Counted from the stretch's first letter, positions 1,606 to 63,513 are shown. The stretch: DNA of 64,000 nt from a virus (IMGVR_UViG_3300026522_000023:61781-125780), one strand, 5' to 3'. The notes: generated from the sequence alone by a model not told the origin. Numbers and translations: made by a program.

Positions 1606-4600
1606 TAGTTTTTTTCCTCCTTTAACTCTTTCACTTGAAGCTTTAATTCTTCAATCTCTTTCATTAAATCTTGTGTGACTGCAATATTTAATGTAAATAA
1701 ACTATTATAATTTAATGATAATAATTGTTTTTCATCTTTTTTTATTAAACTATTATCATTTAAATTATTTTCCTGTAAAATATTCTCAATATCCTAAGCA
1801 ATAAAACCTAAATAAGTTCTATCAGATAATTTATATTTATAACTAACAGGTTTTAATTCACTAAATAATTTTTTATAATCATTAATATGATTATAACTAA
1901 TATTAGTTTTTAATCGTTTATCAGATTTTACACTAATTTCTTCGCTAGAGAAACACCCTGAACCTGTTACATAAATCTAATTACCATAATAATAAATAGA
2001 AGCACCACTATTAGAAGCAGCAACATATCCTCCATTAGCAGCATACATCTAAATACCTCTTGTACTTCCTGCTCCGCTACTACCTACATAAGAATACTCA
2101 ATTCCACCATAGCCGCTACGATAAGAATCTAATTTTGAAGCTAAACCATTAATTGCACTCTATGCCTAAGAAGCAGCACTCTATGCCTATTGAGCTGCAC
2201 TAGCAGCAGCATTAGCAGCCTCTTTAGCATCTTCAGCTGTCGTCTATAAATATGTTAAAATTGAATTTAATGAAGTAGTATCATTATTATCAAACCAACT
2301 TAAACGCCCATTTTTATATTTAATATAAATATCTCCATTGAATGTTCCTGTATTAGCCCACACATACCCATTATTTAAATCAATCTTCATACCAATTTTA
2401 CCATTATCAGCATAATTTTTTGATTGTAAATAATAACTATTATTACCAACATTCATTAAAGTATCATATCCAACTGGATCTCGAATAGTCAAATAATTTG
2501 TGCTATTAGCACCGCTATTAATTGTAAAAACTGAACTGCCTTTTATTTTACAATCTAATAAATTACTCTCTAAATTAAGTAACATACCATTACCATTAGT
2601 AATATCATAAGTAGCAGATTTTAAAAGACATTGATTACCATCTAATATAATACGACCTTTACCATCTTTGCCAAAAAATGCCGTACCATCTTCTCTTAAA
2701 GCGAATGACTATTCTCCTTGATGGAATCCATATATGCCACACTAACCACTAATACTATTATCTGATATTGATTCACCATTAGGGCTCCAATCGCCCATCA
2801 ATACACCAGAAAAAGTATTATCATCATTTTTCTTACCGGCAGCAATCTAACTAGCTAAAATGCTTCCGCTTGCTTCATTTAATACTAAAGACTTACCATC
2901 CCATTTATTTATCATAGATGAAGGATACTTATTCTATAATATTAAAATAGGCTAAGTCCATAAAATATTTCCCTAAGCATTTTTACACTGTACCGCATAC
3001 TAAGGAGCACTATTTACATATATTGCTAAAGGATATAAATATGATTTATTATTAATTACTTTAATAATTCCATAAAAATCAGATTCAGCAGTAGAAGTTC
3101 TTCTATAATAAGTTCTAGAATCAGAACTGCTATATACTTTTTCATAATAATTAATTGTTCTATAAGTAGTAGAAATTAAATTATTATTACTATCCTTTAT
3201 ATAATAACTTTCTCCATCTATCGGATTCCCTACAATATCAGTCCCTAAAGTTTTTTTATAATAATTTAATTTATTAAATATAGAATATACATAATTATTA
3301 TTATTTCCAGTCCTAATATAACAATTACTGTAATCAATAATATCACCATTAGGAATTACTTTATAACTATCTTTACTTGAATCTAATGAATATAGTGATG
3401 GTCCAGTATATATAAATTTATACATAATATTATTTTGTTTAAAATAATAGGTAGATAACCGTACTAAATCATTAAAAGTACAAGTAGTAGTTGCACCATC
3501 AGAACTTTCATCTATTTCAGAAGCATAGTATTCTTTAAAATCATAAGAAATTATTGTATTATTTTTAAAAATATAATAGGTGGTATTATATTTCCATGAA
3601 TTTTTATTAACAGACTAATATTTTGTAAAATATAATTCTTCAAAATCAAAAGGATAAATTGCACTATACTAAAACTAAGAATCGCTAGCTAAAAATCTAT
3701 ATTCTTTTCCAGATTCTAAATCACTTATAGAAGTAATTTTTCCTCCGTTAGTGCCATAAAGATTATTTATTAATTTATTATAACTAATAATAGAAGTCTA
3801 ATTATAAGGTCCGCTACTATTAGCACGCTTAGTATTTTTTATAATATATCTTTTATTAGGAATTTTCTAAATATCAATAATAGATAAATCACTTATTTTA
3901 GAATTTTTATCATAACTAATATCTTTATAAATTCCCTAAAGAGTGCTATAATCTTCATTGGAAACATCATAATAAGCATAATATGGAAATTTATCAATTA
4001 AATTATTAATAGAAACAATTACTTTATTAGTTGCTAAATTATAAAATGTTTGAGCATCATAATAAGTAGAAATATAATTGCCTGTAGCTTCATCCTTCTA
4101 AAAATATAATGTTCTATCTATTAAATTATTAGGAGAAACTAAAGTATATTTTATATCCTAACTACTTTGATAAAAAACAGTACTATCTATTGGCAAATAA
4201 AAATTCAACTAATCAATATCATTTGAACTAGCACTTACGTATAAATATTTACCATTATCATCGCGTATATATCCGCTCGATACTTTTTTATATAAATCCT
4301 AATATTTAAAAAGATAAGAAATTGAACCATTTGAATTATAATAAGTTTCATTATTAATTAAATCCCAATAGCTATTAACTAAAGTATATTTATCTTTGCT
4401 AGGATTTAATCTATAATAAGTCTAAGAAATTCCACTATATACAACTTCTGTTACTCTATCTTCAAGATAATATTTTTTTCCTATGGTCGGACTAGAAACT
4501 AATCTAAAAGTCATATTAGAAGATAAAGTAGTTGGAATATAAATATCTTCTCCATTACTATTTTGTTCTTTATAATAATAAGTTTTATATTTTAATTCTT

Positions 4601-6851: not shown

Positions 6852-6933
6852 AATAATCCCTCCTTTTACTCATTATTCTATAAATTAGTGAAAAATTGTC
6901 CTACTTTATTAAATATATCTACCCAAAAAGAAA

Positions 6934-35320: not shown

Positions 35321-35334
35321 ATATTTTATATTTT

Positions 35335-35418
35335 CGTAATTCAGAATCGAAAAATGTTTTTTCGTGATTTGAAATTGAAAAACATTTTTCCGTAATCCAG
35401 AATTGAAAAATGTTTTGG
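35335..35418. repeat. Three imperfect 28-bp tandem repeats
   Basis: cgtaattcagaatcgaaaaatgtttttt / cgtgatttgaaattgaaaaacatttttc / cgtaatccagaattgaaaaatgttttgg, starting at 35335, 35363 and 35391. Confidence 0.8.
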
Positions 35419-35960: not shown

Positions 35961-36238
35961 GCAACTCTCACAATCTCAAGCTACCCAAAGACTGCGAGCA
36001 CGTGCGCAAGCACGCAATAAGTATAATAATCTATACACATAATGAATAGCACATAATAAATAACACACAATCATCACATCAATAGGCTGCTCGGCGCGCT
36101 GGCGGGTGTGGCGCGCCGAGTTTGCGTATTATACAAATGTCACAAAAATCTTCTGCGCTTTTTGTACAAAATTATCCCTTGACAGATTTCCCACAATGTG
36201 CTATACTATAAATACAGTAAAGGAAAGAGGTATTCATT

Positions 36239-36547
36239 ATGGAAGAAATCAGACGCCGCATGAACATCTTCAGCGCTATCAGCGCAGTCATTGTTGTCCT
36301 GCTCATTATCTTGCTCTGCCAGTACATTAAGGCACACCCAGCTCAGGATGTCAATAATATCTATACGAGAAGTGCAACCGTCTGTGAAGTCAATGGCAAT
36401 GTCCAATTCTATACAGATGACGCAGGCAATGAATGGAGTACTACAGACGAAAATGTGTCCGTTGGTGACAAGGTTCTTCTGGTAATGAATACCATGGGAA
36501 CATCACCCATCTGCGATGATGAAATCATCGAGGTTAGAGCACGCTAA
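36239..36547 (+). CDS. Hypothetical membrane-anchored protein
   Basis: Promoter at 36179 and GAGG RBS; N-terminal TM segment. Confidence 0.65.
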   Translation: MEEIRRRMNIFSAISAVIVVLLIILLCQYIKAHPAQDVNNIYTRSATVCEVNGNVQFYTDDAGNEWSTTDENVSVGDKVLLVMNTMGTSPICDDEIIEVRAR

Positions 36548-36724
36548 GCAAAGCGTGCTCTTTCTGCGTTTGTTAGTCTCCGCACACGATAGTGAGTTCC
36601 CGGAACTTCACCAAGCTAAAGTAGTAAAGAAAAATTCTGTGAAATATTTGCGCATAAAGACTTGACAAAGCGTTCCCGAAATGCTATAATACAGATACAA
36701 GGTAAGGAAATGAGGTATTACACA

Positions 36725-36925
36725 ATGACTACGATTCAGGTTCTGTACTCGATTATTATTTGGAGCTTTTCTCTTTTTCTCTGTATTACGCTTGTAATTA
36801 ATATGAGAGAGTTTATCAAGACTTCTATCAGTTGGAAATACGATTGGCCTGTTATTGTTCTTTGGGTATGCGAGTTGGCCTTGACTATTATTCTTATCTT
36901 AGTCCCATTTATTTTCTTTATGTGA
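36725..36925 (+). CDS. Small two-TM membrane protein
   Basis: Promoter at 36662 and GAGG RBS; hydrophobic. Confidence 0.6.
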   Translation: MTTIQVLYSIIIWSFSLFLCITLVINMREFIKTSISWKYDWPVIVLWVCELALTIILILVPFIFFM

Positions 36926-37021
36926 TAGGGAATAATCCTTATTACATTAAGAAAAATAGTTCTTGACAACTATCACATTCTGTGCTATAATACAGATACA
37001 AAGTAAAGAGAGGTAACAATC

Positions 37022-37159
37022 ATGTTTGAATTTGGTATTCTGAACATTAACGCTCAGGAAGAAAGAATCATCTTTGGATACAATGGAATTGACGCTTTCC
37101 GCAGATACAATCTTGACGCGGCTGAATGGAAAGTTCTGTATTCTGAATACGTTGATTAA
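37022..37159 (+). CDS. Small hypothetical protein, 45 aa
   Basis: Promoter at 36963 and GAGG RBS; MFEFGILNINAQEERIIFG... Confidence 0.6.
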   Translation: MFEFGILNINAQEERIIFGYNGIDAFRRYNLDAAEWKVLYSEYVD

Positions 37160-37237
37160 AAAAAATAAAATTAGGGCTTGACAAACCGCAATCTTCATGC
37201 TATAATTAAGACACAAAGAACGAAGGAGATAACAACA

Positions 37238-37432
37238 ATGACTGACAACTACAACACCTACTACAACAAGCTTATGGGCATGAAGAAAGCGGACATTATC
37301 CGCGAGGGTCAGACTTGGGACATTTGGGCGAACTGCCAGAGCACCGCCGCTTGGCTGATGAAACAGTCTAAGACTTGGCTGGCTGGTGTCCTTGCTGGTC
37401 GGCTGTGCCGCTTGGAAAATCGGGGCTACTAA
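37238..37432 (+). CDS. Small hypothetical protein
   Basis: Promoter at 37178 and AAGGAG RBS; MTDNYNTYYNKLMG... Confidence 0.65.
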   Translation: MTDNYNTYYNKLMGMKKADIIREGQTWDIWANCQSTAAWLMKQSKTWLAGVLAGRLCRLENRGY

Positions 37433-37457
37433 GCCCCGAAGAAAGGAAGTAAAAATT

Positions 37458-37646
37458 ATGTATCATGTTTATGAAAATGATTATGAGTTTCCGCTCTACT
37501 GGAATTCTCTGGATGACGCTATGACATTTGCTCAGCGTTGTTCTACTGGTAGAAAGCACCATTGGCGCAACAAATACATTGTTGTTGATAATACAACTGG
37601 CGAAGTTATCATTATTTTCCGCTGTGGCTTCGGACTTCTAAAATAA
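37458..37646 (+). CDS. Small hypothetical protein
   Basis: GAAAGGA RBS; MYHVYENDYEFP...; followed by a terminator hairpin. Confidence 0.6.
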   Translation: MYHVYENDYEFPLYWNSLDDAMTFAQRCSTGRKHHWRNKYIVVDNTTGEVIIIFRCGFGLLK

Positions 37647-37907
37647 AAAATATCCCAATTTGGGATATTTTTTTTATTTATTTTTCCTATTGACAAATCC
37701 AATAGAGTGTAATAAAATGGGCGCGCCGGCCACAATCGCCACTGGCCGGCATTTTATTATAACATACCGCCAGCCAATTTGTCAAGGGGAAAATCGCACA
37801 AATATTATACAAAAAATTTTCCCGAAATTTGTGCGTTTTGCCAATAGACAAACAGAATAGCATAGTGTATAATAAAGATACAAAGTTAAGGAACGAGGTA
37901 ATTCACA

Positions 37908-38075
37908 ATGACTATGAACACACTTGCTGAGAAATTGTCCGCATGGCTCGACCGTTATGGCTGGGATGATGAAAGCCTGAATAATTTTGCCAACATCCAT
38001 GCGACTTCCTACGAAGAATACAATGCGATTTGGGAAGTTTTGGAAGAACTGAAAAAAATGCGTGATGGGGATTGA
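37908..38075 (+). CDS. Small hypothetical protein, 55 aa
   Basis: Promoter at 37845 and GAGG RBS; its TGA stop lies inside the next TTGACA. Confidence 0.6.
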   Translation: MTMNTLAEKLSAWLDRYGWDDESLNNFANIHATSYEEYNAIWEVLEELKKMRDGD

Positions 38076-38132
38076 CAAAGTCCCCATTCCATGCTATAAT
38101 AAATATACAAATTAAGAAAGGAATTGAATACA

Positions 38133-38351
38133 ATGGATTTCAAGAAAATGAGCACAGGCGCAGTAATCGGCAAAATTCTTTACACAGTTGGCAAGTGGTT
38201 CGCAACTGCCGCTTTGATCTGGTGGGGCTGGAACATTTTTGCTTGGCACTTTGATCTGCCGCAGTTCGAGTACATGGAAATCTTTGCCATGCGTATGGCT
38301 CTGACCTGTATCATGAAAATTTTCTGGCAGAGAACTGACAAAGGGGATTGA
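38133..38351 (+). CDS. Small membrane protein
   Basis: Promoter at 38072 and GAAAGGA RBS. Confidence 0.6.
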   Translation: MDFKKMSTGAVIGKILYTVGKWFATAALIWWGWNIFAWHFDLPQFEYMEIFAMRMALTCIMKIFWQRTDKGD

Positions 38352-38407
38352 CAAACAATCCCCATGTGCTATAATAAATTCAGAAATTAAGAAAGGAATT
38401 GATAAAC

Positions 38408-38869
38408 ATGAAAGCAACAGGAATTATCCGCAGAGTTGATGATTTGGGGCGCGTAGTTATCCCCAAGGAGATCCGCCGCACCCTCCGCATCCGCGAGGGC
38501 GACCCGCTGGAGATTTTCGTCGAAGGTGGCGCAGTCATTTTCAAGAAATACCAGACAATGGGAAATCTTGAAACTCAGTGTAACGTGCTTTGTGACACAT
38601 TCCAAAAAATGTCCAGTGCGTGCGCAGTCTTTGATACTGATGGTGAACTGTTCGCATCAAATTCACAGTTCCGCTTTGCCTTTGCCGCCAACATGCCCAA
38701 GTTGCCGGAAGATTTAATCGGTTGCCGCGGAATTCTTGAACGCAATCACATGATTGTCATGCCCATTATCGCTGATGAGGAAATGCTGGGAACTCTGGCA
38801 GTTGAAACCGATAACCGCGAAATGGTTCAATTTGCGGCAAGAAATTTGGCTGAACAGTCGAAAAATTAA
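38408..38869 (+). CDS. spoVT: SpoVT-like transcription regulator (AbrB domain plus GAF-like C-terminus)
   Basis: MKATGIIRRVDDLGRVVIPKEIRRTLRIREGDPLEIFV closely matches the SpoVT N-terminus; own promoter at 38348. Confidence 0.8.
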   Translation: MKATGIIRRVDDLGRVVIPKEIRRTLRIREGDPLEIFVEGGAVIFKKYQTMGNLETQCNVLCDTFQKMSSACAVFDTDGELFASNSQFRFAFAANMPKLPEDLIGCRGILERNHMIVMPIIADEEMLGTLAVETDNREMVQFAARNLAEQSKN

Positions 38870-38931
38870 GTCTTGACAAACCAGCCAGTCTATGATACAA
38901 TAATGATACAAAAGAAAGCGAGGTACTTACA

Positions 38932-39090
38932 ATGAAAATGGTTATCTTCACTCTGGTAATTGCTATCCTTGTCATTGACTGGCTGGCTGCTGTTCTGGAA
39001 TTTGCTACCGGTCACAAGAAAAGCATTGTCGATGTTATCATCCGTTCATTCCTTCTTTTTGCCGTGCCTTTTATCGTCCAGTGGTTCTAA
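38932..39090 (+). CDS. Small membrane protein, 52 aa
   Basis: Promoter at 38873 and GAGG RBS; hydrophobic. Confidence 0.55.
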   Translation: MKMVIFTLVIAILVIDWLAAVLEFATGHKKSIVDVIIRSFLLFAVPFIVQWF

Positions 39091-39430
39091 CTGCTGGGCG
39101 ATAAAATTCACTATTGACAAAATAATAAAAATGTGATATAATAATTATACAATAAAAAAAGGAATTGATAATATGAATTTCCTATCTAATTTGCCTATTG
39201 ACATTTTTGATTAAGTATGCTATAATTAAATGATAAGAAAATTGCGGCCGCCCGCCGACGTTTGCCAGCCCCGGTATTTCCATTATAACACCGACCAGCC
39301 ATTTTGTCAAGCGAAAAATTGAACAAAAATGAAAAAATATTTGATCCCGAATTTGTGTATTCTACCAATAGACAAAAAGAAAAACAGGGTATATAATAAG
39401 GATACAAAGTTAAGGAACGAGGTACTTGAA

Positions 39431-39610
39431 ATGAGTAAGCGTGAAATGGTCCGCATGATTAACGACCGCACCGGTGAAATCATTGACAAGGTTTTTGATG
39501 ATTCTGCCGACGCCGATGATCTTGAATTTCTTCTGGACATGATGCAAGTCCATTATCAGCGGTGGAGTGATGGCGAAATTCTTTATGAAGAAAATGATAC
39601 AAGGGCTTGA
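39431..39610 (+). CDS. Small acidic hypothetical protein
   Basis: Promoter at 39369 and GAGG RBS. Confidence 0.6.
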   Translation: MSKREMVRMINDRTGEIIDKVFDDSADADDLEFLLDMMQVHYQRWSDGEILYEENDTRA

Positions 39611-39667
39611 CAAACAAGCCCCTATGTGGTATAATCAATACAGAAATTAAGGAATGAGGTAACTACA

Positions 39668-39886
39668 ATGAAGAACTTCACTATTGACGCTTACATCAAA
39701 CAGCAGTTGATTTTTGCTGAGACTATGCCCACCGATGCCGAGCTGTTCGAGCACAACGCCTTTGGCGCTATCGAGTGGAACGCTTATGTAAATGGCACTA
39801 ACCCCGAACTCGAACGTCGTTGGACTGAAAACTACAAGCCCGCATTTGAAAAGATTATTCGGGGGGGTTTTCCATGGATGATCTGA
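39668..39886 (+). CDS. Small hypothetical protein
   Basis: Promoter at 39607 and GAGG RBS. Confidence 0.65.
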   Translation: MKNFTIDAYIKQQLIFAETMPTDAELFEHNAFGAIEWNAYVNGTNPELERRWTENYKPAFEKIIRGGFPWMI

Positions 39887-40066
39887 AAAAAGGGACTTGT
39901 AAGGATTTTACAGCGTGGGACTTAAACTGTCCCCGCTATGTAAAACCTGACAACAAACTGAGAAAAAAATTTGTGCGGAAATATCGCAGAAATTCAAAAC
40001 TGGCTCTTGACAAACAGGCAAAAACGTGCTATAATCAAGATACAGAAACGGAAAGGAATGAAAACA

Positions 40067-40537
40067 ATGATTAAAGAAATCGTATTCGACATGGACGGAA
40101 CTATCGCTGACCTGTATGGCGTTGAGAACTGGCTGGAAAAGTTGAGAACATCCGACCCGACCCCGTATGAAATCGCAGAACCCCTGATTGACATGGCAGA
40201 ACTTGCCAATCTGCTTTCCCAGTGTCGCGTTATCGGGATTGAAGTTTCCGTTGTAACTTGGCTAAGCAAGGTTTCCACTCCCGACTATGATAAAGCAGTG
40301 AGAAAAGCGAAAAAAGAATGGCTGAACAACCATGATTTTCCTTTTGACCATTTCCACGGAGTCAAGTATGGAACACCGAAACATCAGGTAGTCAAGCAGG
40401 AACTTCCAAAAGATGGAACGGCACTGATTTTCGATGATGATGCGCGAGTGCGGAACGCTTGGACGCTTGGCGAAGCAATCGACCCCACAAAAGAAAATAT
40501 CATTGAAATCCTGCGGAATATTTTGGAAGCGCGCTGA
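40067..40537 (+). CDS. HAD-superfamily hydrolase
   Basis: IVFDMDGTIADL motif I and LIFDDD motif IV; start reassigned to the ATG after the GAAAGGA RBS. Confidence 0.8.
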   Translation: MIKEIVFDMDGTIADLYGVENWLEKLRTSDPTPYEIAEPLIDMAELANLLSQCRVIGIEVSVVTWLSKVSTPDYDKAVRKAKKEWLNNHDFPFDHFHGVKYGTPKHQVVKQELPKDGTALIFDDDARVRNAWTLGEAIDPTKENIIEILRNILEAR

Positions 40538-41029
40538 GCGCTTCCAAAGAAAGGAAATAAGAAAATGAATGACGAACAGCTTGAAATCTTGATGGAAGAA
40601 GCAACAGACATTAAAATTTTGATTGCCTTGGGCTAAAAAATTAAATTTGGGAATCCAGATTTTGGATTCCCAAATTTTTTTGATTCATTTTTTTGGAAAT
40701 AGTTGTAAAATGACAGCCGCGCGGTCACGATTGTGTGGCCGCGCCATTTTGTCAAGAGGGAATGTTCACTAATTTTTTGAGCGGATTTTTGTGTATTTTG
40801 CCAATAGACAAAAATCCTGAAACATGGTATAATTCATAATGTCAAGAGGGAACAGCGATTAAAAGTGCTTGGCATCATTAGCCGGGCTACACAACTTCCT
40901 AGGTTCGTGTGTAAAAAAAAAATAAAATTCCCTCTTGACAAACAGCTCCTGATGTGCTATAATCAATACAGAAATTAAGGATAGGGGAAACGATGGTAAG
41001 CCCCATCCAAAAGAAAGGAATTACCAAAA

Positions 41030-41686
41030 ATGAACAAAAATATCTACTGTACGCTGGACACTGAAACAGTCGGTGGCAGTTCCAACCCAACCGGAATGTA
41101 TAACGCGGGTGCTGTCATTCACGACAAGGATGGTAACATTTTGGCAACAACTTCCATTCTTATCATGGAACATTATGACAGCATCAACAAAGATGATTAT
41201 GCTAAGAAGCATTTTCCGATCTATGAAGCCCGTTTGACAAGTGGCACAATTTCTGCGGTAGCTACCGAAGCCGAAGCTGTGTCCATCGTGCGCAACCTCT
41301 GCCGGCTCTATGGTGTAAAGTATGTTATGGCATACAATAGCTGTTTCGATTTCATTAAGACACCTTTTGCCGTGCTTCTGGATGAATTTGAGTTTATCGA
41401 CCTTTATTTGATGGCTTTACAAACCATCACGCACCAGAAAGGTTTTGACAGATTCTGCCATGAAAATAATTTCATCGCGCGAAGTGGCAAGTCTTGCGCG
41501 ACGGGTGTTGAAGCGGTCTATGCCTACATTACCAGAAACCCCGACTTTGAAGAAGAACACACCGCACTTTCTGACGCACTGAATGAAATGGCAATTTTTG
41601 TTAAGTGCTATTCGCTCCATAAGCGCTTTACCAAAAACTGCCACCAGTGGAATTGCCACGAAAATAAAATGTTTCCCAAGTGGTAA
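41030..41686 (+). CDS. DEDDh 3'-5' exonuclease
   Basis: LDTET, AYNSCFD and HTALSDA motifs. Confidence 0.8.
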   Translation: MNKNIYCTLDTETVGGSSNPTGMYNAGAVIHDKDGNILATTSILIMEHYDSINKDDYAKKHFPIYEARLTSGTISAVATEAEAVSIVRNLCRLYGVKYVMAYNSCFDFIKTPFAVLLDEFEFIDLYLMALQTITHQKGFDRFCHENNFIARSGKSCATGVEAVYAYITRNPDFEEEHTALSDALNEMAIFVKCYSLHKRFTKNCHQWNCHENKMFPKW

Positions 41687-41865
41687 GAACCACTTGACAA
41701 ACCCAACCGAATGTGATACAATGTAAGTGTTCCAAGGGGAGATGAACTTCTCCCCAAGGACACGAAAAAAAATTCAAATTAGGTATTGACAAGTCGAAAG
41801 ATTTGTGATACAATATATTCATCAAGTGAAGGACACACTTAAAAAACCAGAAAGGAATTGATACT

Positions 41866-42228
41866 ATGGCTACTAAGATGACTAAGAAGGATTGCTTCAC
41901 CGCTCTGCTCCAGATGGACGAAGTCCAGTCCAACCAGACTCTCGTGGATTTCATCAACCACGAACTCGAACTGCTGGCGAAGAAAAACAGCGCCGAAAAG
42001 AAGCCGACCGCGACCCAGCTCGCCAATGATGGCTTCAAGTCCGCGATTCTCGCTCACATGGGCATGACCCCTGACCAGCTTTTCACCATCACGGAGCTGA
42101 TTAAGTCCGTGCCGGAGATTGCCGACCTGACCAACCAGCGTGTCAGCGCGATTGTCGGTCAGATGGTAAAGGCTGGAAGCCTTGTCCGTGTTGACGACAA
42201 GAGAAAGGCTTTCTTCAAGGTGGCGTGA
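41866..42228 (+). CDS. Winged-helix-like DNA-binding protein, paralog 1
   Basis: TKKDCF...FINHELELLAKK...TITELIKSVPEIADLTNQRVSAIVGQMVKAG. Confidence 0.65.
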   Translation: MATKMTKKDCFTALLQMDEVQSNQTLVDFINHELELLAKKNSAEKKPTATQLANDGFKSAILAHMGMTPDQLFTITELIKSVPEIADLTNQRVSAIVGQMVKAGSLVRVDDKRKAFFKVA

Positions 42229-42271
42229 CCGGATGGGGGCTTTTGCCCCCACTTCCGAAAGGAGGTAAAAA

Positions 42272-42631
42272 ATGACAGTCGAAGAGCTCGCCCAGCGGTT
42301 GAATATTTCAGTCGATGAAGCGCGACAAGTCCAAGAGGACGACAAACGCATTGACCGCGGTGAAAAGTTGTTTGAATTGCCGCCGGAGCTTGAAGCAGGA
42401 GCGAAAAAAGCAAGACAGACCGGAACGCGCAAGGTCACAGAGATTAAACGAGAGCGCAAACCCGACGAGGACAAGCGCGAACTCATCCAGTATTTGGAAT
42501 CCAAATTGGAAGATGCTCACCATTACGATATGGATTTGGATAACATTACCATCACAAATCCAGAGCGAGAAATGGAATTTACTTACAATGGAAAAAAGTA
42601 CCGGCTGACGTTGGCTTGCCCCAGAAAATGA
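42272..42631 (+). CDS. Hypothetical protein, partner of paralog 1
   Basis: Homologous to 46565-46969 (D..IDRGE..F.L.PE.E..AKK...G.RKV...ITN.ER...F....Y.LTL). Confidence 0.7.
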   Translation: MTVEELAQRLNISVDEARQVQEDDKRIDRGEKLFELPPELEAGAKKARQTGTRKVTEIKRERKPDEDKRELIQYLESKLEDAHHYDMDLDNITITNPEREMEFTYNGKKYRLTLACPRK

Positions 42632-42848
42632 CAAAAGTTCCTCCCAGAAAATGGGAGGAACTTTTTTACCCAAATTATTTGGAAATAGATGGAAATTCGG
42701 CCGCGCGCTCACAATCCAGTGGGCGCGTCATTTTTGTCAAGAATAACATTCAACAAATTTTCCGCACATTTTTTATGTATTTTGACGGTTGACTTTTCTC
42801 CCGAAATAGCTTATACTATTGGTACAAGGTTAAGGGAGGGAATGCTTA

Positions 42849-43022
42849 ATGAATATTGAAGTAAATACCGAGCATCTAACTGAGTGCATTGAAAGTTGGG
42901 TCGAGACATTTGATGATTGTGCTTGTTGCCCTCTGATGTTCGATTGCCAAGAAGATGAAGATATCCGAGGCATTGACTGCATTGAATGCAGTGAAAAAAT
43001 TATTGATTGGTTAAAGGCTTGA
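42849..43022 (+). CDS. Small Cys-rich hypothetical protein
   Basis: Promoter at 42789 and GGAGG RBS; TGA stop inside the next TTGACA. Confidence 0.55.
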   Translation: MNIEVNTEHLTECIESWVETFDDCACCPLMFDCQEDEDIRGIDCIECSEKIIDWLKA

Positions 43023-43077
43023 CAAAATAGCCCTATTGTGCTATACTATAATCACAAAGAATGAGAGGAGAATACAA

Positions 43078-43371
43078 ATGATTAACTATAAGGACATCAT
43101 TGATGCGCAGGAAATGCTGGTCAAGCATTGGGGCATCCATGGCGAGCAGGTAATTGCCGAGACAGTTAGAGCCGAACGGAAGCCTATGACATCCAAGCAG
43201 TTTCTCGATAACTGCTTGGCGTGCGGTGGCAACTGGAGCGGTATGCTCTTGACTGGAATTGACAAACTGTGGCCTAATGTTGGGAATGCTATCCCCGATA
43301 AAATGGGCGTTCAGGCATGGGGCTGCCTGTGTTCGGTGTTGGTGCTGTGTGGAGTTGATACGAGCGAGTAA
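43078..43371 (+). CDS. Hypothetical protein
   Basis: Promoter at 43019 and AGGAG RBS. Confidence 0.65.
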   Translation: MINYKDIIDAQEMLVKHWGIHGEQVIAETVRAERKPMTSKQFLDNCLACGGNWSGMLLTGIDKLWPNVGNAIPDKMGVQAWGCLCSVLVLCGVDTSE

Positions 43372-43450
43372 AAAACTCGCTCGTTCCTCTTGACAAATCG
43401 CCCAACCTGTGCTATAATAAAGACACAAAAAGGGAAAGGAACTGATAATA

Positions 43451-43774
43451 ATGTGGGCATGGTTGAAGAAATTCTTTGAAGAAGTCCAAAAGAAAGAAAC
43501 TCTAGAGCATTACTCTGTGCGGTTCTATACCACTGACGGCATAATGCACAACTTTACAAAATACAGATACGCCGCACCGGAGCGCCTGAGATGTTCTGTG
43601 CCGGAATACATCATGATTGATGTAAAATCGAACGGCTATCTCAAAGACGATAATGGCGTTATGTATCCTTTGCAAAATGTGGTTTCTATCTATTGGAACA
43701 AAGATGATGAAATCCACGATGTAAAATTAAATGATAAATACGCAATTTTCTTTGACAAGCCTATTGACAAATAG
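43451..43774 (+). CDS. Hypothetical protein ending in TAG (would extend to 43819 under code 15)
   Basis: Promoter at 43390 and GAAAGGA RBS. Confidence 0.65.
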   Translation: MWAWLKKFFEEVQKKETLEHYSVRFYTTDGIMHNFTKYRYAAPERLRCSVPEYIMIDVKSNGYLKDDNGVMYPLQNVVSIYWNKDDEIHDVKLNDKYAIFFDKPIDK

Positions 43775-43823
43775 GCTTGTCTGTGCTATAATAAAGATAC
43801 AATAAAGGAAAGGAATTGATACA

Positions 43824-43958
43824 ATGGATTTAGCTATTATTATTTTAGGTATTCTCTATCTCTGCGGGGTTAAAGTTGGCACAGCACTTGCAATCTGTGC
43901 TATTATTGAAGGTCTTTTTATTATTATCAGTGCAATTATCAAAAAATTAAATGAATAA
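43824..43958 (+). CDS. Small hydrophobic protein, 44 aa
   Basis: Promoter at 43764 and GAAAGGAATTGAT leader. Confidence 0.55.
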   Translation: MDLAIIILGILYLCGVKVGTALAICAIIEGLFIIISAIIKKLNE

Positions 43959-44021
43959 GGGGTTGACAAACAACCCCTAATGTGATATAATAGGATTATC
44001 AAAAGAAAGGAATTGATAAAA

Positions 44022-44255
44022 ATGACAATGGATGAAGTGATTGCGTTAGGGCATAAATTAGATAAAACAATTATCGGCTCTAAAAATTGGCGAAAATATT
44101 ATGATATTTTGGACAGCGAAGAAAATCGTATTTTTGTGTGTGATGAATGTGGAGAAAAATGTACTTACCCTGAATTGGAAAATTGGCTCTGTCATTTGCC
44201 TGAACATTGTATTTGTTCTTCCTGTTATGAAAACAATATGGGCGAAGATTTATAA
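44022..44255 (+). CDS. Small Zn-finger-like protein
   Basis: CDECG...CICSSC; promoter at 43963. Confidence 0.6.
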   Translation: MTMDEVIALGHKLDKTIIGSKNWRKYYDILDSEENRIFVCDECGEKCTYPELENWLCHLPEHCICSSCYENNMGEDL

Positions 44256-44273
44256 AGGAAAGGAATTGATACT

Positions 44274-44453
44274 ATGAAACATTTCCATTGCCCAGTAAAT
44301 GGTTGGGATTGCCCTTACTTCAAAAATGAAACTATCATCAACAACCAGAAAGAAACCTGTATCTGCAGTCTGGAAAATCCGATGGATGATTGCGATGATT
44401 TTTACAGCATGTGGGGCGATTGTGAACCTGATGATTATACAGATGATAATTAA
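44274..44453 (+). CDS. Small Cys/Asp-rich protein, 59 aa
   Basis: GAAAGGAATTGAT leader; MKHFHCPVNGWDCPYF... Confidence 0.6.
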   Translation: MKHFHCPVNGWDCPYFKNETIINNQKETCICSLENPMDDCDDFYSMWGDCEPDDYTDDN

Positions 44454-44486
44454 GGGGAAATTTCCCCTAGGAAAGGAATTGATACA

Positions 44487-44774
44487 ATGTTAGACAATAA
44501 TATTGAAGAAATGCTGAAAGGCTTGACGGACAGTGAAATCGCTACATTGATTGGTCTTGCTTACAGAGAAAAGCAAGACAGAGATGAAGCAAAAAAAACA
44601 AAATACATGAATGCAATCAACAAAGCTATTCAGGATTATCTGGATAATGTTGGAGATTTGACATTCCATGTTGAGTACGAAGACGAAGATGGTCAAGACG
44701 CGGAAACTGACATCACCGTAGATAATACAAATCCGCCTGCTTGTGGTCAGGGAGTTATTTATATTAAGGAGTGA
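44487..44774 (+). CDS. Hypothetical acidic protein
   Basis: GAAAGGAATTGAT leader. Confidence 0.65.
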   Translation: MLDNNIEEMLKGLTDSEIATLIGLAYREKQDRDEAKKTKYMNAINKAIQDYLDNVGDLTFHVEYEDEDGQDAETDITVDNTNPPACGQGVIYIKE

Positions 44775-44850
44775 AAAAATAGCGCAAGGGGCTTGACAAA
44801 GTAGGCCTCTTGTGCTATAATTGATTTATCAAAAGAAAGGAATTGATACA

Positions 44851-45126
44851 ATGAATAAACAGGTTATTTTCATGGACAACGAGGGGACTGTTCAGGCAGG
44901 TATCTGGAATCAGGACAGAGACGAAATTATCTGTGGTTGTTGTGGCGCGACAATCGAATCAGGCGATTTTGTCTTGCTTCACATCTACGACGAATGGCTG
45001 AATATCACCGATGAAATCTGCGGAGATGATGGAGATATTCTTCATGAGATTGAAGAAAAGGTTGACCGTCTGACCATTTCTGAAATTGAAGCAATTCTTG
45101 ATGGAAAGAAGGACTTTAACGCATGA
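44851..45126 (+). CDS. Hypothetical acidic protein with IICGCCG motif
   Basis: Promoter at 44793 and the shared leader. Confidence 0.65.
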   Translation: MNKQVIFMDNEGTVQAGIWNQDRDEIICGCCGATIESGDFVLLHIYDEWLNITDEICGDDGDILHEIEEKVDRLTISEIEAILDGKKDFNA

Positions 45127-45274
45127 AAGGGAAGAAGTTCAGAAAGGGCGATTACATCGCCCAAACTGTCCAGTGGGACCATTATGAAGCCCTTTGGATT
45201 TGTAAATTTTCATGGGGCGAGTTCTTTTATGAAGATGATGAATTTATCAGGGAAAATCTGGTAGAGGGTTAAAA

Positions 45275-45574
45275 ATGGAATTTTTTGTAAAAGTTCTGAG
45301 AAAGTGGTGTGAAGATTATCGTCAACCGTTTGCCCTGTATGGGGCAGACGGTATGCCAATCAGCTATTGGAACACTGAACCAAAGAAACATTATTTCCCG
45401 CCCAAGATGGATGAAGTTTGTAAAATTGAAAATAACTGGTGCTGCTATCCAGTAAATGTCAATGGTGAATACTGCGGTTGCTTCTGCTGGCAAGAGGAAC
45501 TGGAAGGTATTGACTTTTATGACATTATCATGCTCTGCCGACTTCTGGAAACCGCGTGCGAAGTTGAGGAATAA
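45275..45574 (+). CDS. Hypothetical protein
   Basis: 99-aa ORF ending at a terminator hairpin. Confidence 0.6.
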   Translation: MEFFVKVLRKWCEDYRQPFALYGADGMPISYWNTEPKKHYFPPKMDEVCKIENNWCCYPVNVNGEYCGCFCWQEELEGIDFYDIIMLCRLLETACEVEE

Positions 45575-46131
45575 ATTTCCTCAACTTTTTTCGCCTTTTT
45601 AATTGGGAATTTTTGGGCGCGGCGCCCACGTATGTAAGGCGCCGAATTTCCATTATACCACCCCGCCAGCAATTTGTCAAGAGAAAAGTTATACAAAATA
45701 ATCTTTTTATTTTATCCCGTTTTCGTCATTTTGCCAATAGACTTTTCAAGGGGTATCTGCTATAATACATAATGTCAGGAGGGAATGGAGAGTTCCCAAG
45801 CGACCGAAAAAAACTTTCGGAAATCGAAAATTTCCTCTTGACAAAGCCTCTCAGATGTGATATAATGAGGGTACAAAAGAGAGAGAAAGCAACGGTGAAT
45901 ACGACCGTAGCCCATGAGAGCGATGTAAGACTTTCTCGTTAGAATCTTCCGCGCGGAGTCCTATTGTTGCGGGATATAAATGTGAACCAACAGCTACCAT
46001 TTGCTGGAAGGTAGCGGCTGATAGGATGGCAAAAAAAATTCAAATTAGGTATTGACAAATCGCAAGGTTTGTGATACAATATATTCATCAAGTGAAGGAC
46101 ACACTTAAAAAACCAGAAAGGAATTGATACT

Positions 46132-46512
46132 ATGGCTAAGACTACTTCCAAGCTGACCAAGCGCGACTACTTCAATATTCTCCGTGAAGCGTATCCGCAG
46201 ACCGCGGACAACTATGATGCAGTTATCGGTTTCATCGACCATGAGCTGGAACTGCTTTCCAAGAAGAACGCGGCTGACAAGAAGCCGACTGCCACGCAGG
46301 TGGCGAATGACGGTTTCAAGACCTCGATTGAGGCGGTGATGTCCGCAGAACCGACCCGTCTGTTCACTATTACGGAACTGATTAAGTCTGTGCCGGAGAT
46401 TGCCGACCTGACCAACCAGCGTGTTTCTGCTATCGTCCGGCAGATGGTAAAGGATGGCACGCTCGACCGCGTTGAGGAAAAGCGGAAAGCCTATTTTCGT
46501 ATTCACCAGTAA
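46132..46512 (+). CDS. Winged-helix-like DNA-binding protein, paralog 2
   Basis: Shares ELIKSVPEIADLTNQRVSAIV with 41866-42228. Confidence 0.65.
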   Translation: MAKTTSKLTKRDYFNILREAYPQTADNYDAVIGFIDHELELLSKKNAADKKPTATQVANDGFKTSIEAVMSAEPTRLFTITELIKSVPEIADLTNQRVSAIVRQMVKDGTLDRVEEKRKAYFRIHQ

Positions 46513-46564: not shown

Positions 46565-46969
46565 ATGGCATTAAAGGAAAAAGATAAGCAAGCGTGGATT
46601 GACAAAAATATGAAACTCATGGGCTGGACGCAGGAAGAGGCGGAAAGCGTGTGGGAAGCCGACCGCGCTATCGACAAGGGCGAACGTGTTGAGTTTGACT
46701 TGTCGCCAGAACAGGAAAAAGAAGCCAAAAAATACATGAACGCGGGAACGCGCAAAGTGCCGACAAATTACAAATTTGACCAGCGCAAGCGTAAAGAAAA
46801 CCCGACCAAAGCTGGAATTATCGCAGAATTAGCAACTTTTTTGGCTGAAAACAGCGAAAATGCGTGCGAAAACGTGGAAATTACAAACAAAGAGCGCATG
46901 ATTGCGTTCAAAGTTGGTGAAAATTGCTACGAATTGACGCTCACGCAGAAAAGAAAGCCAAAAAGTTAA
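46565..46969 (+). CDS. Hypothetical protein, partner of paralog 2
   Basis: Homologous to 42272-42631. Confidence 0.7.
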   Translation: MALKEKDKQAWIDKNMKLMGWTQEEAESVWEADRAIDKGERVEFDLSPEQEKEAKKYMNAGTRKVPTNYKFDQRKRKENPTKAGIIAELATFLAENSENACENVEITNKERMIAFKVGENCYELTLTQKRKPKS

Positions 46970-60622: not shown

Positions 60623-61483
60623 ATGGTTAAATTAAATTTAATAAATCAAAGATTTGGTAAATTAGTAGTAATTGATAGTGCGCCAAATACTGATTCAAGA
60701 TTAACTGCTTGGAAATGTCAATGTGATTGTGGAAATCAATGTATTTCTACAACTAAATAGTTGCGAAGTGGTAAGAAAAAATCTTGCGGATGTTTGTCTA
60801 AATTTTATAAAGATATTGAAATAGGAGACAAATATAATTATTTAACAGTTATATCTAAAAGTGAAAATCGAGATAAATATTGGAAATGTTAGTGTGATTG
60901 CGGCAATTTTACAGAAGTTTTAGATAGTAATTTAAAAAATGGTAATGTAAAATCTTGTGGTTGTTTAAGAAGATAGCCATCTTCTCGTAGAGTAGATATA
61001 ACAAATAAAAAATTTGGATATTTAACAGCTTTATATTATAATACAGAAAAGTCTTAGCCAAATAGAACTTATTGGCATTGTAAATGTGATTGCGGCAATG
61101 AATGTGACGTACTATTAGAAAATTTAGTATCTTCTAATAGGTTTCCATCATGTGGATGTTAGACAATTTCTCGTGGAGAAATGAAAATAGAGCAATTATT
61201 AAAAGAAAATAATTTTTCTTTTGAGAGAGAAAAGACCTTTGATAGTTGTATAAATCCAAAGACTAATAAATTATTGCGTTTTGATTTCTTTGTTAATAAT
61301 AGTTATTTAATTGAATTTGATGGTGAATAGCATTTTAAAGATGGATGGTTTGAGTCTTTAGAAGATGTTTAGTACAGAGATAATATAAAGACGCAATGGT
61401 GTAAAGATAATAATATACCATTAATACGAATACCTTATACTAAATATAAGGATTTAACTATTAATGATTTAATTTTAATTTAA
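60623..61483 (+). CDS. Free-standing homing-endonuclease-like protein: three WxCxCDCGN...SCGC repeats plus a DUF559/Vsr-like nuclease, 286 aa (TAG=Gln; missing from the ORF track)
   Basis: GGAGG RBS; WKCQCDCGN, WKC*CDCGN, WHCKCDCGN; SRGEMKIEQLL...LRFDFFV...LIEFDGE*HF...RDNIKTQWC...LIRIPY. Confidence 0.85.
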
Positions 61484-61653
61484 TGTTATATTCTTATTTT
61501 TGTTGGTAATCAGCGGAAGTAAGTTAATATATATAGAACCCCTTTCAAAAGATTCCCCTCTTTGTTTGGCCGCAGAGAGGGGAATTGATTTTTATATAAA
61601 AATTTGATATAATATATATAGAAGATAAAAGAAAGTGAGAGTTGGTATTCTAA

Positions 61654-63513
61654 ATGGCTTTGTGCAATTATTTAAGTAATGAAGATAAATCAATATTTTG
61701 TAATTGGATCAATATGTATGGCGGCATGAGTGACAATAAAGATCCTGATCTTGATGTAGAAAATGTCGATCATATTTTGCGGTTTTGGGATAAGGAGAAA
61801 GTAACTCTTTGGAAGATGCTTGGTGAAAAATTTACTATTTCCAAAGATGTAACTTTTAAACGTTCTGAGCGTCAGTCTAGATCTGATTTTGAAGATTGTC
61901 TTGGTTATTGGCGGGGTGGTTATAAGTTTATTCGTGAATATCAAGACTTTACTGCTGATAAAAGAAATCTTGAGACGCCAGAAAGTTATCATGATCCTCT
62001 TTATAAAGTAAATCGGTTTGAAGATATTATGGCTTTGAGAGAGCTAACTACTTTTGAAAGCCTTCATAATAATATTTATACGGGTGATTCTTTTACTATT
62101 ACTCGTAGTGATGATGGACAAACAATGTTAGTCAATAAAGGTGCCAAAATCAGTAAATTACTTGGTAAGTTGGCAAAATTCTTTGAGCTGTCAGAAGCAA
62201 AATATGAAGAATTTAGAATTGCTCATTCTCAATTTTTAAATCAAGATACTATTAAAGGTACACTTTGTTTGTCAATTCATCCCATGGATTATGTAACCAT
62301 GAGCGATAATGATTGCGATTGGGATAGTTGTATGAGTTGGCGTAATGAAGGCGATTATCGTATTGGCACTGTTGAAATGATGAACTCTCCTTGCGTCCTT
62401 GTTGCTTATCTTCGCGCGAAAGAAGATATGGAATTTGGCTGGGGTGAGAAGCTTTCACATTGGAATAATAAGAAATGGCGTCAGCTTTATATTATCACCA
62501 AAGATTTAATTAGCGATATTCGTCAGTATCCTTGGCATAATGATGAATTGAATGGTCTTTGTATGAAATGGATTAGAGATCTTGCGGCTACTAATCTTGG
62601 TTGGCAATATAGTAATCTTTGTACTTATTATAATAATTTCCGCGATGCTAATTATAATAATTTTTGTTTGGAATTGAGTGATAAGCCTTATTCAATTAAC
62701 GTCTATTGTGATAAGATGTATAATGATGTTTATTCCAAAAATCAAAAATGTTTTATTGGCATTGAAGCACCGCACGAAATTGACATTGATTATTCTGGTT
62801 ATAGCGAATGTATGAATTGTGGCGAAGAGATTGGTGACATTAGTGATACTTGTATGTTACTTTGTGATAATTGTTCTAATGCTATAAGATGTAGTTGTTG
62901 TGGCGACATTATCCATAATGATGATTACTATTGGGTGGACGATGATACTTGTCTCTGTTATGACTGTTATGCTGAAAAAGCAGGTACGTGTGAAGACTGT
63001 GGTGACGCTTTCTATAATGAGGATTTGAATGAAATTCGTCTTTATAAAGATAATAAATTAACTTGGCGTTCTGGTTATCTTTGTTACAATTGTAAGAGCG
63101 ATTATGAAGAAGCTGGATTAATTATTAGTGATCCTATCAAATCATCTTTCGGAGTCCATTATCGAGTAGATTTTGAAACTTTGATGGAATCGGATAGTGA
63201 AGCTGCTGATAGACTACGAGATATTTTTTCTATTAATAGTGAAGAAGGCCGGCAATGGTTTCTTGATAGTTTAAAAGATTAGTCTTAGTCTTAGGCGGAA
63301 GCAAAAATAACTAATCCTCTAGAATATATGTTATGGGATAGTTTAAATAAAGCTTTACAAGAAGTTATTGGACCTTATAAAGCAATAGGAACTACTTTCC
63401 AACAATTAAAAGATGGATTAGTAACTATTCCAGAAGAAGAAATGACTGAAAAAGCAGCAGATGCTTTAAAGGAACATTATGAACAATTTGTTGATTTCAG
63501 AAAAGTTATTTGA
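61654..63513 (+). CDS. Hypothetical protein with CxxC Zn-ribbon repeats; 542 aa in code 11, 619 aa in code 15
   Basis: Track ORFs 61654-63282 and 63328-63513 are in frame, joined through TAG TCT TAG TCT TAG. Confidence 0.65.

Follow-up and report, generated by a model that had tools for sequence, protein, structure and literature searches.

A repeated unit of hairpin and opposed promoters between early-gene blocks of code 15 phages, a candidate boundary controller

The variable early regions of T4-like phages contain promoter-early stem-loop (PeSL) cassettes (PMC2839356, PMC4122927), small composites in which a strong early promoter of the sigma-70 type is preceded by a terminator stem-loop and an A/T-rich stretch and which occur in many copies among small genes of unknown function. 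Both this composition and this setting are shared by a repeated unit of about 220 bp, of which five full copies and a partial one separate early-gene blocks in the window analysed here, the final 64 kb of one 125,780-bp virus contig (IMGVR_UViG_3300026522_000023:61781-125780). Along the direction of the early genes, the unit consists of a bidirectional terminator (T1, e.g. AAAAATCACCCAATTTGGGTGATTTTTTTT), a forward promoter (P+), a palindrome, a promoter on the other strand (P-), an A/T-rich spacer and a second forward promoter (P2). The tentatively favoured reading is that the unit would act as a controller of block boundaries, via termination, interference between face-to-face promoters and restart of transcription.

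The likeness to PeSLs extends to the order of the parts, P+ coming after T1 in most relatives as well as in copy 1, and P2 after a hairpin with a T-run in the short forms of the unit, which is the PeSL-type order. In the case of PeSLs, indels between close relatives end in the motifs (PMC2839356); here, in one genome pair, 3 of about 13 indel edges lie at the units, and because the indel edges fall at promoter elements in general, shuffling appears to use all promoter cassettes, as described for PeSLs (PMC2839356). Several features nevertheless set the unit apart. Whereas a PeSL contains one forward promoter, the unit contains up to three promoters, one of them inverted; it adds a second hairpin, placed at exact distances from the two promoters that face each other across it, as well as an inverted consensus promoter with a predicted RNA devoid of open reading frames (ORFs), and a restart promoter with a conserved imperfect -35. 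PeSL stems are typically of the form GGGG...CCCC, in contrast to the mixed G/C order of the unit stems, the unit has no sequence motif in common with PeSLs, and PeSLs belong to a lineage of T4-like myoviruses, whereas the unit is found in siphovirus-like code 15 phages whose hosts are probably Clostridia. The closer analogue of the PeSLs is accordingly provided by the ordinary single-promoter cassettes of the same island, about 25 in number; the units number five to eight in an island of about 30 promoter cassettes.

Convergent promoters are known from other mobile elements. In IS10, pIN and pOUT converge and RNA-OUT is a short stem-loop RNA. In coliphage 186, the promoters pR and pL are arranged face to face (PMC3675496, PMC5001618). 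Both systems have in common with the unit, as predicted, convergent promoters, overlapping transcripts, one short stem-loop RNA, and interference through occlusion and collision. However, they occur once per element and are tied to a defined gene (lysogeny genes and transposase, respectively), whereas there are 2-8 units per genome, in which the overlap of about 24 nt lies wholly inside the palindrome and no coding target is overlapped.

The promoter-proximal hairpins of antitermination RNAs, nut/boxB of lambda and put of HK022, resemble the unit in that a hairpin with a variable stem and a partly conserved loop lies just past an early promoter. The units differ in having neither a boxA-like partner nor a recognisable N- or Q-type protein, in loops of 9-11 nt, and in a hairpin that begins at or before the start site and would be transcribed from the other side too. 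Stem-loops at the 5' terminus also stabilise Bacillus mRNAs, as in the ermC and aprE leaders and the SP82 early RNA sites. These have in common with the units a stable stem-loop a few nucleotides from the 5' end and the Firmicute setting, but they head coding messages, whereas the best-placed hairpin of the unit heads a predicted antisense RNA that lacks ORFs.

Architecture and conservation of the unit

All six copies reported in an initial annotation of this DNA are present in the sequence. The signature TTTGTCAAG-N(44-54)-CCAATAGAC occurs four times on the plus strand (37778, 39303, 40748 and 45673) and not once in 100 shuffles, and in the fifth full copy (42733) TTGACT replaces TAGACA. On the plus strand of the whole 125.8-kb genome TTTGTCAAG is found at five sites, all within these units; its 13 sites on the other strand belong to ordinary forward promoters.

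The anatomy was drawn from 43 non-identical copies in relatives. An intact P+ (TTGACA-17-TA(A/T)AAT, the -10 preceded by TGTG) is seen in 33 of them and an intact P- (TTGACA-17/18-TATAAT with TG) in 35. In nearly all copies the -10 of P+ ends 2-4 nt ahead of the stem and that of P- is placed 7-8 nt past the palindrome. P- is the best consensus match of the unit, P+ usually having TAAAAT and P2 an imperfect -35 (TAGACA in most copies, otherwise TTGACA, TTGTAA or TTGCAx). The spacer contains cACAAAt close to P-, and in it tCCCGAAATTTGTGc precedes the next -35 by about 10 nt. An upstream element, TTTGTG-N13-GACAAA, is common to P+, P- and P2; scanned as TTTGTS-N12-14-GACWW, it has no occurrence outside these units anywhere in the genome, and its positions in the islands of the two relatives scanned are mostly at units. 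Because the three promoters share this element, the "palindromic spacer" of the initial annotation, which is indeed present, is explained by its mirrored arrangement in two such promoters placed back to back. The separate box that had been proposed, CCAATAGAC, is instead the -35 region (TAGACA) of the next promoter and is variable in relatives.

A short form, represented by 8 of the 43 copies and by window copies 3 (40718) and 4 (42700), is devoid of about 25 bp including the -10 of P-, so that the hairpin runs directly into TTTT(TT)GTCAAG, ending in GAGTTTTTTG in the relatives. In both window copies, the G+C-rich stem with its immediate T-run is called a forward terminator. The long-form stem, followed by AATTTCCATTATA on the plus strand and by CCCATTATA on the minus strand, is not called a terminator on either. 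Loss of the -10 of P- always goes together with a spacer from P- to P2 that is shortened by one helical turn (about 10 bp): the opposed -35 hexamers, for which gaps of 57-59 or 48-49 bp had been reported, are 59, 58 and 57 bp apart in the window copies that have this -10 and 49 and 48 bp apart in those that do not, and the same 10-bp step is seen in relatives. Two distant relatives (G002 and G005) have kept P- and the hairpin, and P+ is absent.

The palindrome comprises an all-G/C stem of 8-9 bp and a loop of 9-11 nt, about 27 nt altogether in nearly all copies. In 27 different palindrome sequences, 212 Watson-Crick pairs were counted against 4 others (1 G-T and 3 A-C). A plain MAFFT alignment gives 82% of cells paired and 34 double changes, compared with 28-41% and 5-12, respectively, when the partners are slid; when 35 distinct copies are aligned by fitting to the model, the paired cells amount to 88.6% (33-38% with slid partners), with compensatory changes in 8 of the 9 pairs (63 such cells). 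The former figures are the safer ones because the model-fitted alignment leans towards structure. Judged by these comparisons, the stem covaries and the hairpin is real, in agreement with the earlier observation that the stems differ and the pairing is kept. The loop is asymmetric, with ACG at loop positions 3-5 on the plus strand in most copies; since this motif occupies constant positions on one strand, the unit has a fixed polarity. The recurrence of CACAATC at the hairpins, also part of the initial annotation, is local to this genome and not a feature of the family, the relatives sharing the loop ACG instead.

Several further assignments were considered and set aside. Wobble pairs do not assign the transcribed strand, as the long forms, with stems that are almost wholly Watson-Crick, show no readable bias; G-U pairs are found only in the short forms of the window, on the plus strand. 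A Chi-site reading of the stems lacks the constant oriented motif. Hairpin promoters of an N4-like virion RNA polymerase were considered on account of a giant ORF, but its 3078-aa product is a tape measure protein, and this reading is also countered by stems of 8-9 bp and loops of 9-11 nt between ordinary sigma-A promoters. Mimicry of CRISPR repeats (an RNA anti-CRISPR) is disfavoured by stems that are different in every copy and by the lack of a conserved 3' handle, on inspection only, CRISPR repeats not having been searched. The reading of TTTGTCAAG as a Spo0A box was left as an idea, this sequence being simply the extended -35 (CTTGACAAA) common to all early promoters.

An exact-pattern scan of IMG/VR returned 70 loci, about half of which are chance matches inside genes, the remainder showing the unit; the unit-bearing loci come mostly from one metagenome, with three other metagenomes also represented. 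The early islands of five relatives were fetched, and a covariance model built from 23 copies was run on eleven complete records, on the human-gut phage phAss-1 (OQ749652.1) and on Enterococcus phage EF1, matches with E<1e-7 being considered strong. The eleven records and phAss-1 contain 2-8 strong matches per genome, in each case within one island of about 15 kb and on one strand, with a spacing of about 1.1-2.9 kb; the three copies of phAss-1, at 129.0-133.0 kb, have all parts recognisable. The model detects no unit in phage EF1, the nearest cultured relative by portal protein, and the records of cultured phages contain no match to the whole unit (blastn) or to the most conserved early protein (tblastn). 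Rfam gave no match at the gathering threshold over the whole window, and at E up to 1 over 35.5-49.5 kb only noise, none of it on unit palindromes or promoters. The gene content between units differs greatly among the relatives, and the units persist. A compound unit of this kind was not found described in the literature searched or in the report on phAss-1, the sole paper on this lineage, which does not mention promoters or repeats (PMC10607447). The suggestion that the unit is an undescribed repeated functional one agrees with this result and with the position and layout kept in about a dozen relatives; of the checks proposed along with it, the covariance model and the relatives gave covariation and positional conservation, and Rfam gave no match.

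A predicted backward RNA and its interpretation

In the promoter scan, in which scores are matches out of 12 hexamer positions, exactly three minus-strand promoters in 35.9-46.1 kb reach 12/12, and these are the P- of copies 1, 2 and 5 (Table 1), at the positions originally annotated; the converging plus-strand promoters annotated at 37690 and 39198 were likewise recovered (11/12 and 12/12). The predicted start of P-, about 7 nt past its -10, is the last base of the palindrome, and the RNA would therefore open with the complete hairpin. A minus-strand terminator is present in 15 of the 22 long copies, and the predicted RNA is 103-106 nt in 10 of those. The predicted RNAs have folds much more stable than those of shuffles (z -4.4 to -5.8), and they are free of ORFs, there being no start codon with a ribosome site. 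Their middle part is conserved only at the opposing P+ hexamers, and the 14 nt between these vary freely. The earlier prediction of ORF-less RNAs of about 85-105 nt is in line with a genuine-looking P- and with the terminator search. It is probable that P- is a working promoter that makes a short ORF-less RNA, a core common to the two leading readings.

According to the boundary-controller reading, host sigma-A RNA polymerase would read each unit as a boundary and restart cassette between early-gene blocks. T1 would close the upstream block, and transcription from P+ would start 3-5 nt inside the 5' arm of the palindrome. The P- RNA would begin with the hairpin, continue antisense across P+ and stop at T1, yielding an ORF-less product of about 104 nt, and P2, of the same promoter subtype and back to back with P-, would read into the next block from a -35 that is usually imperfect. 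Because only about 24 bp separate the predicted start of P+ from that of P- and each polymerase covers about 20 bp downstream, the two promoters could not hold polymerase together, and each would transcribe across the other; being mutually exclusive and mutually transcribing, the pair would meter forward transcription into the next block by interference, with P2 serving as a separately tunable restart. The hairpin would provide both RNAs with a nuclease-resistant 5' end and would be a plain forward terminator in the short variant, and the RNA of about 104 nt would be a by-product or a cis-acting antisense RNA. Such a role in cis is suggested by the location of the unit, always between gene blocks and with terminators combined with restart promoters, by the freely varying middle part of the RNA (P+ hexamers excepted), and by the short form, which amounts to a terminator followed by a restart.

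A number of observations weigh against this controller. Since G002 and G005 have P- and the hairpin without P+, interference with P+ cannot be the core function everywhere, and window copies 0, 3 and 4 (36090, 40718 and 42700) have no promoter facing the hairpin. The conserved loop ACG and the fixed size of about 27 nt are left unexplained by the model, and the strongest promoter of the unit points backwards, which suits a wanted RNA product at least equally well. Start sites, termination and interference are, moreover, all predictions.

The main rival, which is possible but more doubtful, takes the product of P- to be a stable trans-acting small RNA (sRNA) of about 104 nt, encoded by 2-8 genes per genome. 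The scaffold would be formed by the 5' G/C hairpin with its ACG/CGU loop and by the terminator hairpin, with a middle that differs between copies, and the RNA would be a regulator of early infection or a decoy for a host RNA-binding or defence factor. Consistent with this, P- is not only the best but also the most widely kept promoter, surviving in phAss-1 and in the distant relatives without P+; its predicted start coincides with the hairpin base in nearly all copies; the predicted length, with a terminator, is constant; and the strong folds, the lack of ORFs and the kept orientation of the loop motif point in the same direction. In Firmicute RNA decay, a hairpin at the start is the classic arrangement for a protected 5' end. 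However, there is no shared seed, as the single-stranded middle is conserved only at the P+ hexamers, 7 of the 22 long copies have no recognisable minus-strand terminator, and Rfam holds no match. Stems that differ in every copy also imply that a single structured RNA is not being mimicked. Conceivably, 2-8 trans-acting sRNA genes for host takeover, each driven backwards by the strongest promoter of the early island, are arrayed in the phAss-1 lineage of code 15 gut phages; these would be diversified regulators, or decoys against RNA-guided or RNA-sensing defence of the host, with the embedded opposing promoter as an off-switch.

Less likely still is an interpretation at the level of DNA, in which the mirrored TTTGTG-N13-GACAAA over the -35 of P+, P- and P2, the palindrome, or both are candidate operators for an early regulator of the phage. 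Such a regulator (e.g. a winged-helix or AbrB-type protein) would shut the three promoters jointly, or the bound protein or polymerase would be a roadblock. In favour of operators are the confinement of the motif to units throughout the genome and its occurrence mostly at units in the two islands scanned, the preservation of tCCCGAAATTTGTGc from the window to phAss-1, the retention of TTTGTCAAG in short forms, where a promoter role is no longer possible, and the shift of spacer length by one helical turn rather than arbitrarily; in addition, an AbrB/MazE-fold protein (38408-38869) and a weak match to the winged-helix fold are found among the gene products of the island. In two relatives, P+ is replaced by a perfect 18-bp A/T palindrome, TTGTTAAAATTTTAACAA (L081, about 6855-6875; L082, about 3915-3935), which could be an operator. 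On the other hand, a stem sequence that differs in each copy yet stays self-complementary is the signature of a folded strand and not of a sequence-specific operator, and the spacer motif could equally be an UP-like element of one promoter subtype.

It is improbable that the units are primarily recombination joints, that is, PeSL-like linkers for the shuffling of gene blocks with regulation limited to the terminator and promoter, as the initial annotation had also considered. The great variation of gene content between persisting units would agree with this, and among about 13 indel edges relative to the near-identical phage G006 (one genome pair) three coincide with units, at 37669 (left edge of copy 1), at 40639-40643 (left edge of copy 3) and at about 40845, directly after the -10 of P2 in copy 3. 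The edges nevertheless lie at or just after promoter elements in general, and since about ten of them are at ordinary single-promoter cassettes, the units do not seem to be preferred shuffling sites; this part of the proposal thus stands only weakly. Plain homology also fails to explain a covarying palindrome, exact distances between promoters and stem, and an inverted consensus promoter in distant genomes.

In the plasmid leading-region elements Frpo/ssi, the -35 and -10 are rebuilt by folding of one strand. A comparable role as single-strand DNA signals, or one as transcription-primed origins using GC-rich R-loops, is very improbable for the units: promoter boxes with a hairpin in first-entering DNA recall Frpo/ssi, the units are in the first-expressed region, and GC-rich starts in A/T-rich DNA with promoters on both strands would favour RNA-DNA hybrids, but both promoters are in normal duplex form with only the palindrome of about 27 nt self-complementary, the -35/-10 spacers of P+ and P- show no mutual complementarity, which means that folding of a single strand would not rebuild a promoter, there is no known precedent for five to eight origins in a stretch of 15 kb, and cumulative GC skew has its turning points at the island edges and none inside 36-46 kb.

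Copies in the window and genomic setting

The features of the individual copies are listed in Table 1.

Table 1. Parts of the repeated unit located in the window
Feature	Position	Strand	Description
Copy 0, partial, short-form-like	36090..36120	+	10-bp GC stem, 11-nt loop, then TTTGCG
Copy 1, T1	37645..37673	both	Bidirectional terminator closing the upstream block (terminator scan; minus-strand fold and terminator search)
Copy 1, P+	37690..37718	+	TTGACA-17-TAAAAT, 11/12, aimed into the palindrome
Copy 1, palindrome	37725..37750		gccggcca / tggccggc, 8-bp stem, 10-nt loop
Copy 1, P-	37756..37785	-	TTGACA-18-TATAAT with TG, 12/12
Copy 1, spacer and P2	37786..37873	+	Spacer cgcacaaat ... cccgaaatttgtgcg; P2 TAGACA-17-TATAAT at 37845-37873
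Copy 2, P+	39198..39226	+	12/12; copy 2 without T1
Copy 2, GC-rich segment	39245..39275		Degenerate palindrome; still 65.5 bits to covariance model R1
Copy 2, P-, spacer and P2	39282..39397		P- 39310-39282 minus, 12/12; P2 39369-39397 plus
Copy 3, short form	40643..40833	+	T1 40643-40677; palindrome and T-run 40719-40744; TTTGTCAAG 40748; P2 40805-40833
Copy 4, short form	42633..42817	+	T1 42633-42665; palindrome and T-run 42703-42728; TTTGTCAAG 42733; P2 42789-42817
Copy 5, long form without P+	45543..45766		Terminator 45543-45571; palindrome 45620-45644; P- 45680-45652 minus, 12/12; P2 45738-45766

Copy 0 folds at -25.8 kcal/mol (z -2.9) and has neither TTTGTCAAG nor a facing promoter, the next forward promoter of the scan being at 36179-36207. 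Compared with shuffles, copies 0, 3 and 4 give z -2.9 to -3.4, copy 5 (45615) is modest (z -1.2), and copy 2 (39245), whose hairpin had been described as weak, folds no better than shuffles. In copy 1, the minus-strand RNA is predicted to end at T1, extending from about 37750 to about 37647 (about 103 nt, no ORF; fold z -4.35), and P2 is positioned to drive a 55-aa gene at 37908. P2 of copy 2 is positioned to drive a gene that starts near 39432. A 13-codon mini-ORF (MNFLSNLPIDIFD; 39175-39216) with a good ribosome site, driven from a promoter at 39114, overlaps the -35 of P+ in this copy. There is one G-U pair on the plus strand in the hairpin of copy 3 and two in that of copy 4, where P2 is TTGACT-17-TATACT; copy 5 matches R1 with 74.3 bits.

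In copies 3 and 5, P2 is followed by an ORF-less leader (40834-40935 and 45767-45838) that starts with ATGTCA(A/G)GAGG(G/A)AA. Counterparts after P2 are found in relatives (L081, 13590-13720; L214, about 8740 on the minus strand), and in phAss-1 the same leader comes after an ordinary cassette promoter. Both leaders of the window begin with the reverse complement of the following promoter's -35 region (TTCC(C/T)CTTGACA), and owing to this complementarity the leader RNA could close on itself.

The early island is distinguished by its base composition, with 40-46% G+C at 36-48 kb compared with 26-35% elsewhere in the window, and by about 30 near-consensus promoters of the form CTTGACAAA-N-TGnTATAAT in this stretch, nearly all on the plus strand. 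In many of the ordinary cassettes (38065-44820), the -35 hexamer sits within a short G/C-rich inverted repeat, e.g. AGGGGTTGACAAACAACCCCT at 43958-43978, with the result that a terminator and the promoter of the following gene overlap. At the left edge of the island, at 35328-35416, there are three phased direct repeats of 28 bp (repeat family D19). The early gene best kept at the DNA level in relatives (77% identity, G007-G009) encodes a 134-aa protein (46565-46969) and is accompanied by the gene of the weak winged-helix protein (46132-46512), with paralogues at 41866-42631, of which the winged-helix one is at 41866-42228; neither protein matches cultured phages.

The long ORFs of the late and structural genes, on the minus strand at 1-33 kb (1-33150) and some at 60-64 kb (60623-63513), are open only when TAG is read as glutamine, the reading frame of the 3078-aa tape measure protein being interrupted by 108 TAG codons and that of the 1748-aa tail fibre by 39; no in-frame TAG was noted in the genes of the early island. 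Under this code, PHROGs names the tape measure protein, the tail fibre, the portal and the terminase. As long ORFs require the reassignment and a virion module is named, the phage is, by its gene content, siphovirus-like with stop-codon reassignment. With the portal protein of phAss-1, a phage assigned to the "Caudoviricetes code 15 clade" and proposed to have a Clostridia (Eubacteriales) host (PMC10607447), the portal protein here shares 40% identity; a cultured host is so far lacking for phAss-1-like phages. G006 (the IMG/VR contig behind L006) is 201,031 bp with terminal repeats and is 95-97% identical to the window; because this near-identical genome exceeds the contig of the window by 75 kb, and the completeness of the latter is 63% by the IMG/VR estimate, the genome examined here is probably a fragment.

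The signature of P- has at least 120 matches in bacterial genomes, which are generic consensus promoters of the Clostridia type, and none of the 80 listed bacterial loci that share it contains a unit according to the covariance model; matches to generic promoters without the unit make this search uninformative on the host. The extended consensus CTTGACAAA-N8-10-GTGnTATAATGG is also found on at least five contigs of one metagenome-assembled genome of Candidatus Dormiibacterota (L087, L100, L109, L122 and L123) and in several metagenome-assembled genomes of Chloroflexota (Anaerolineae, Dehalococcoidia), which is unexpected outside Firmicutes.

Significance for early infection

The palindrome with its precise placement, the inverted consensus promoter and the weakened restart promoter are what the unit adds to the PeSL design, and its function is a proposal read from sequence. 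The unit is the most conserved non-coding feature of the early islands; it outlasts the neighbouring genes, and its construction is precise to the nucleotide. If the backward RNAs are functional, they would constitute a new family of phage small RNAs with several copies per genome; if they are not, the unit would be a compact natural design that insulates and meters tandem operons through face-to-face promoters. In the early infection of phages that reassign a stop codon, the unit would mark a control point that is open to direct testing.

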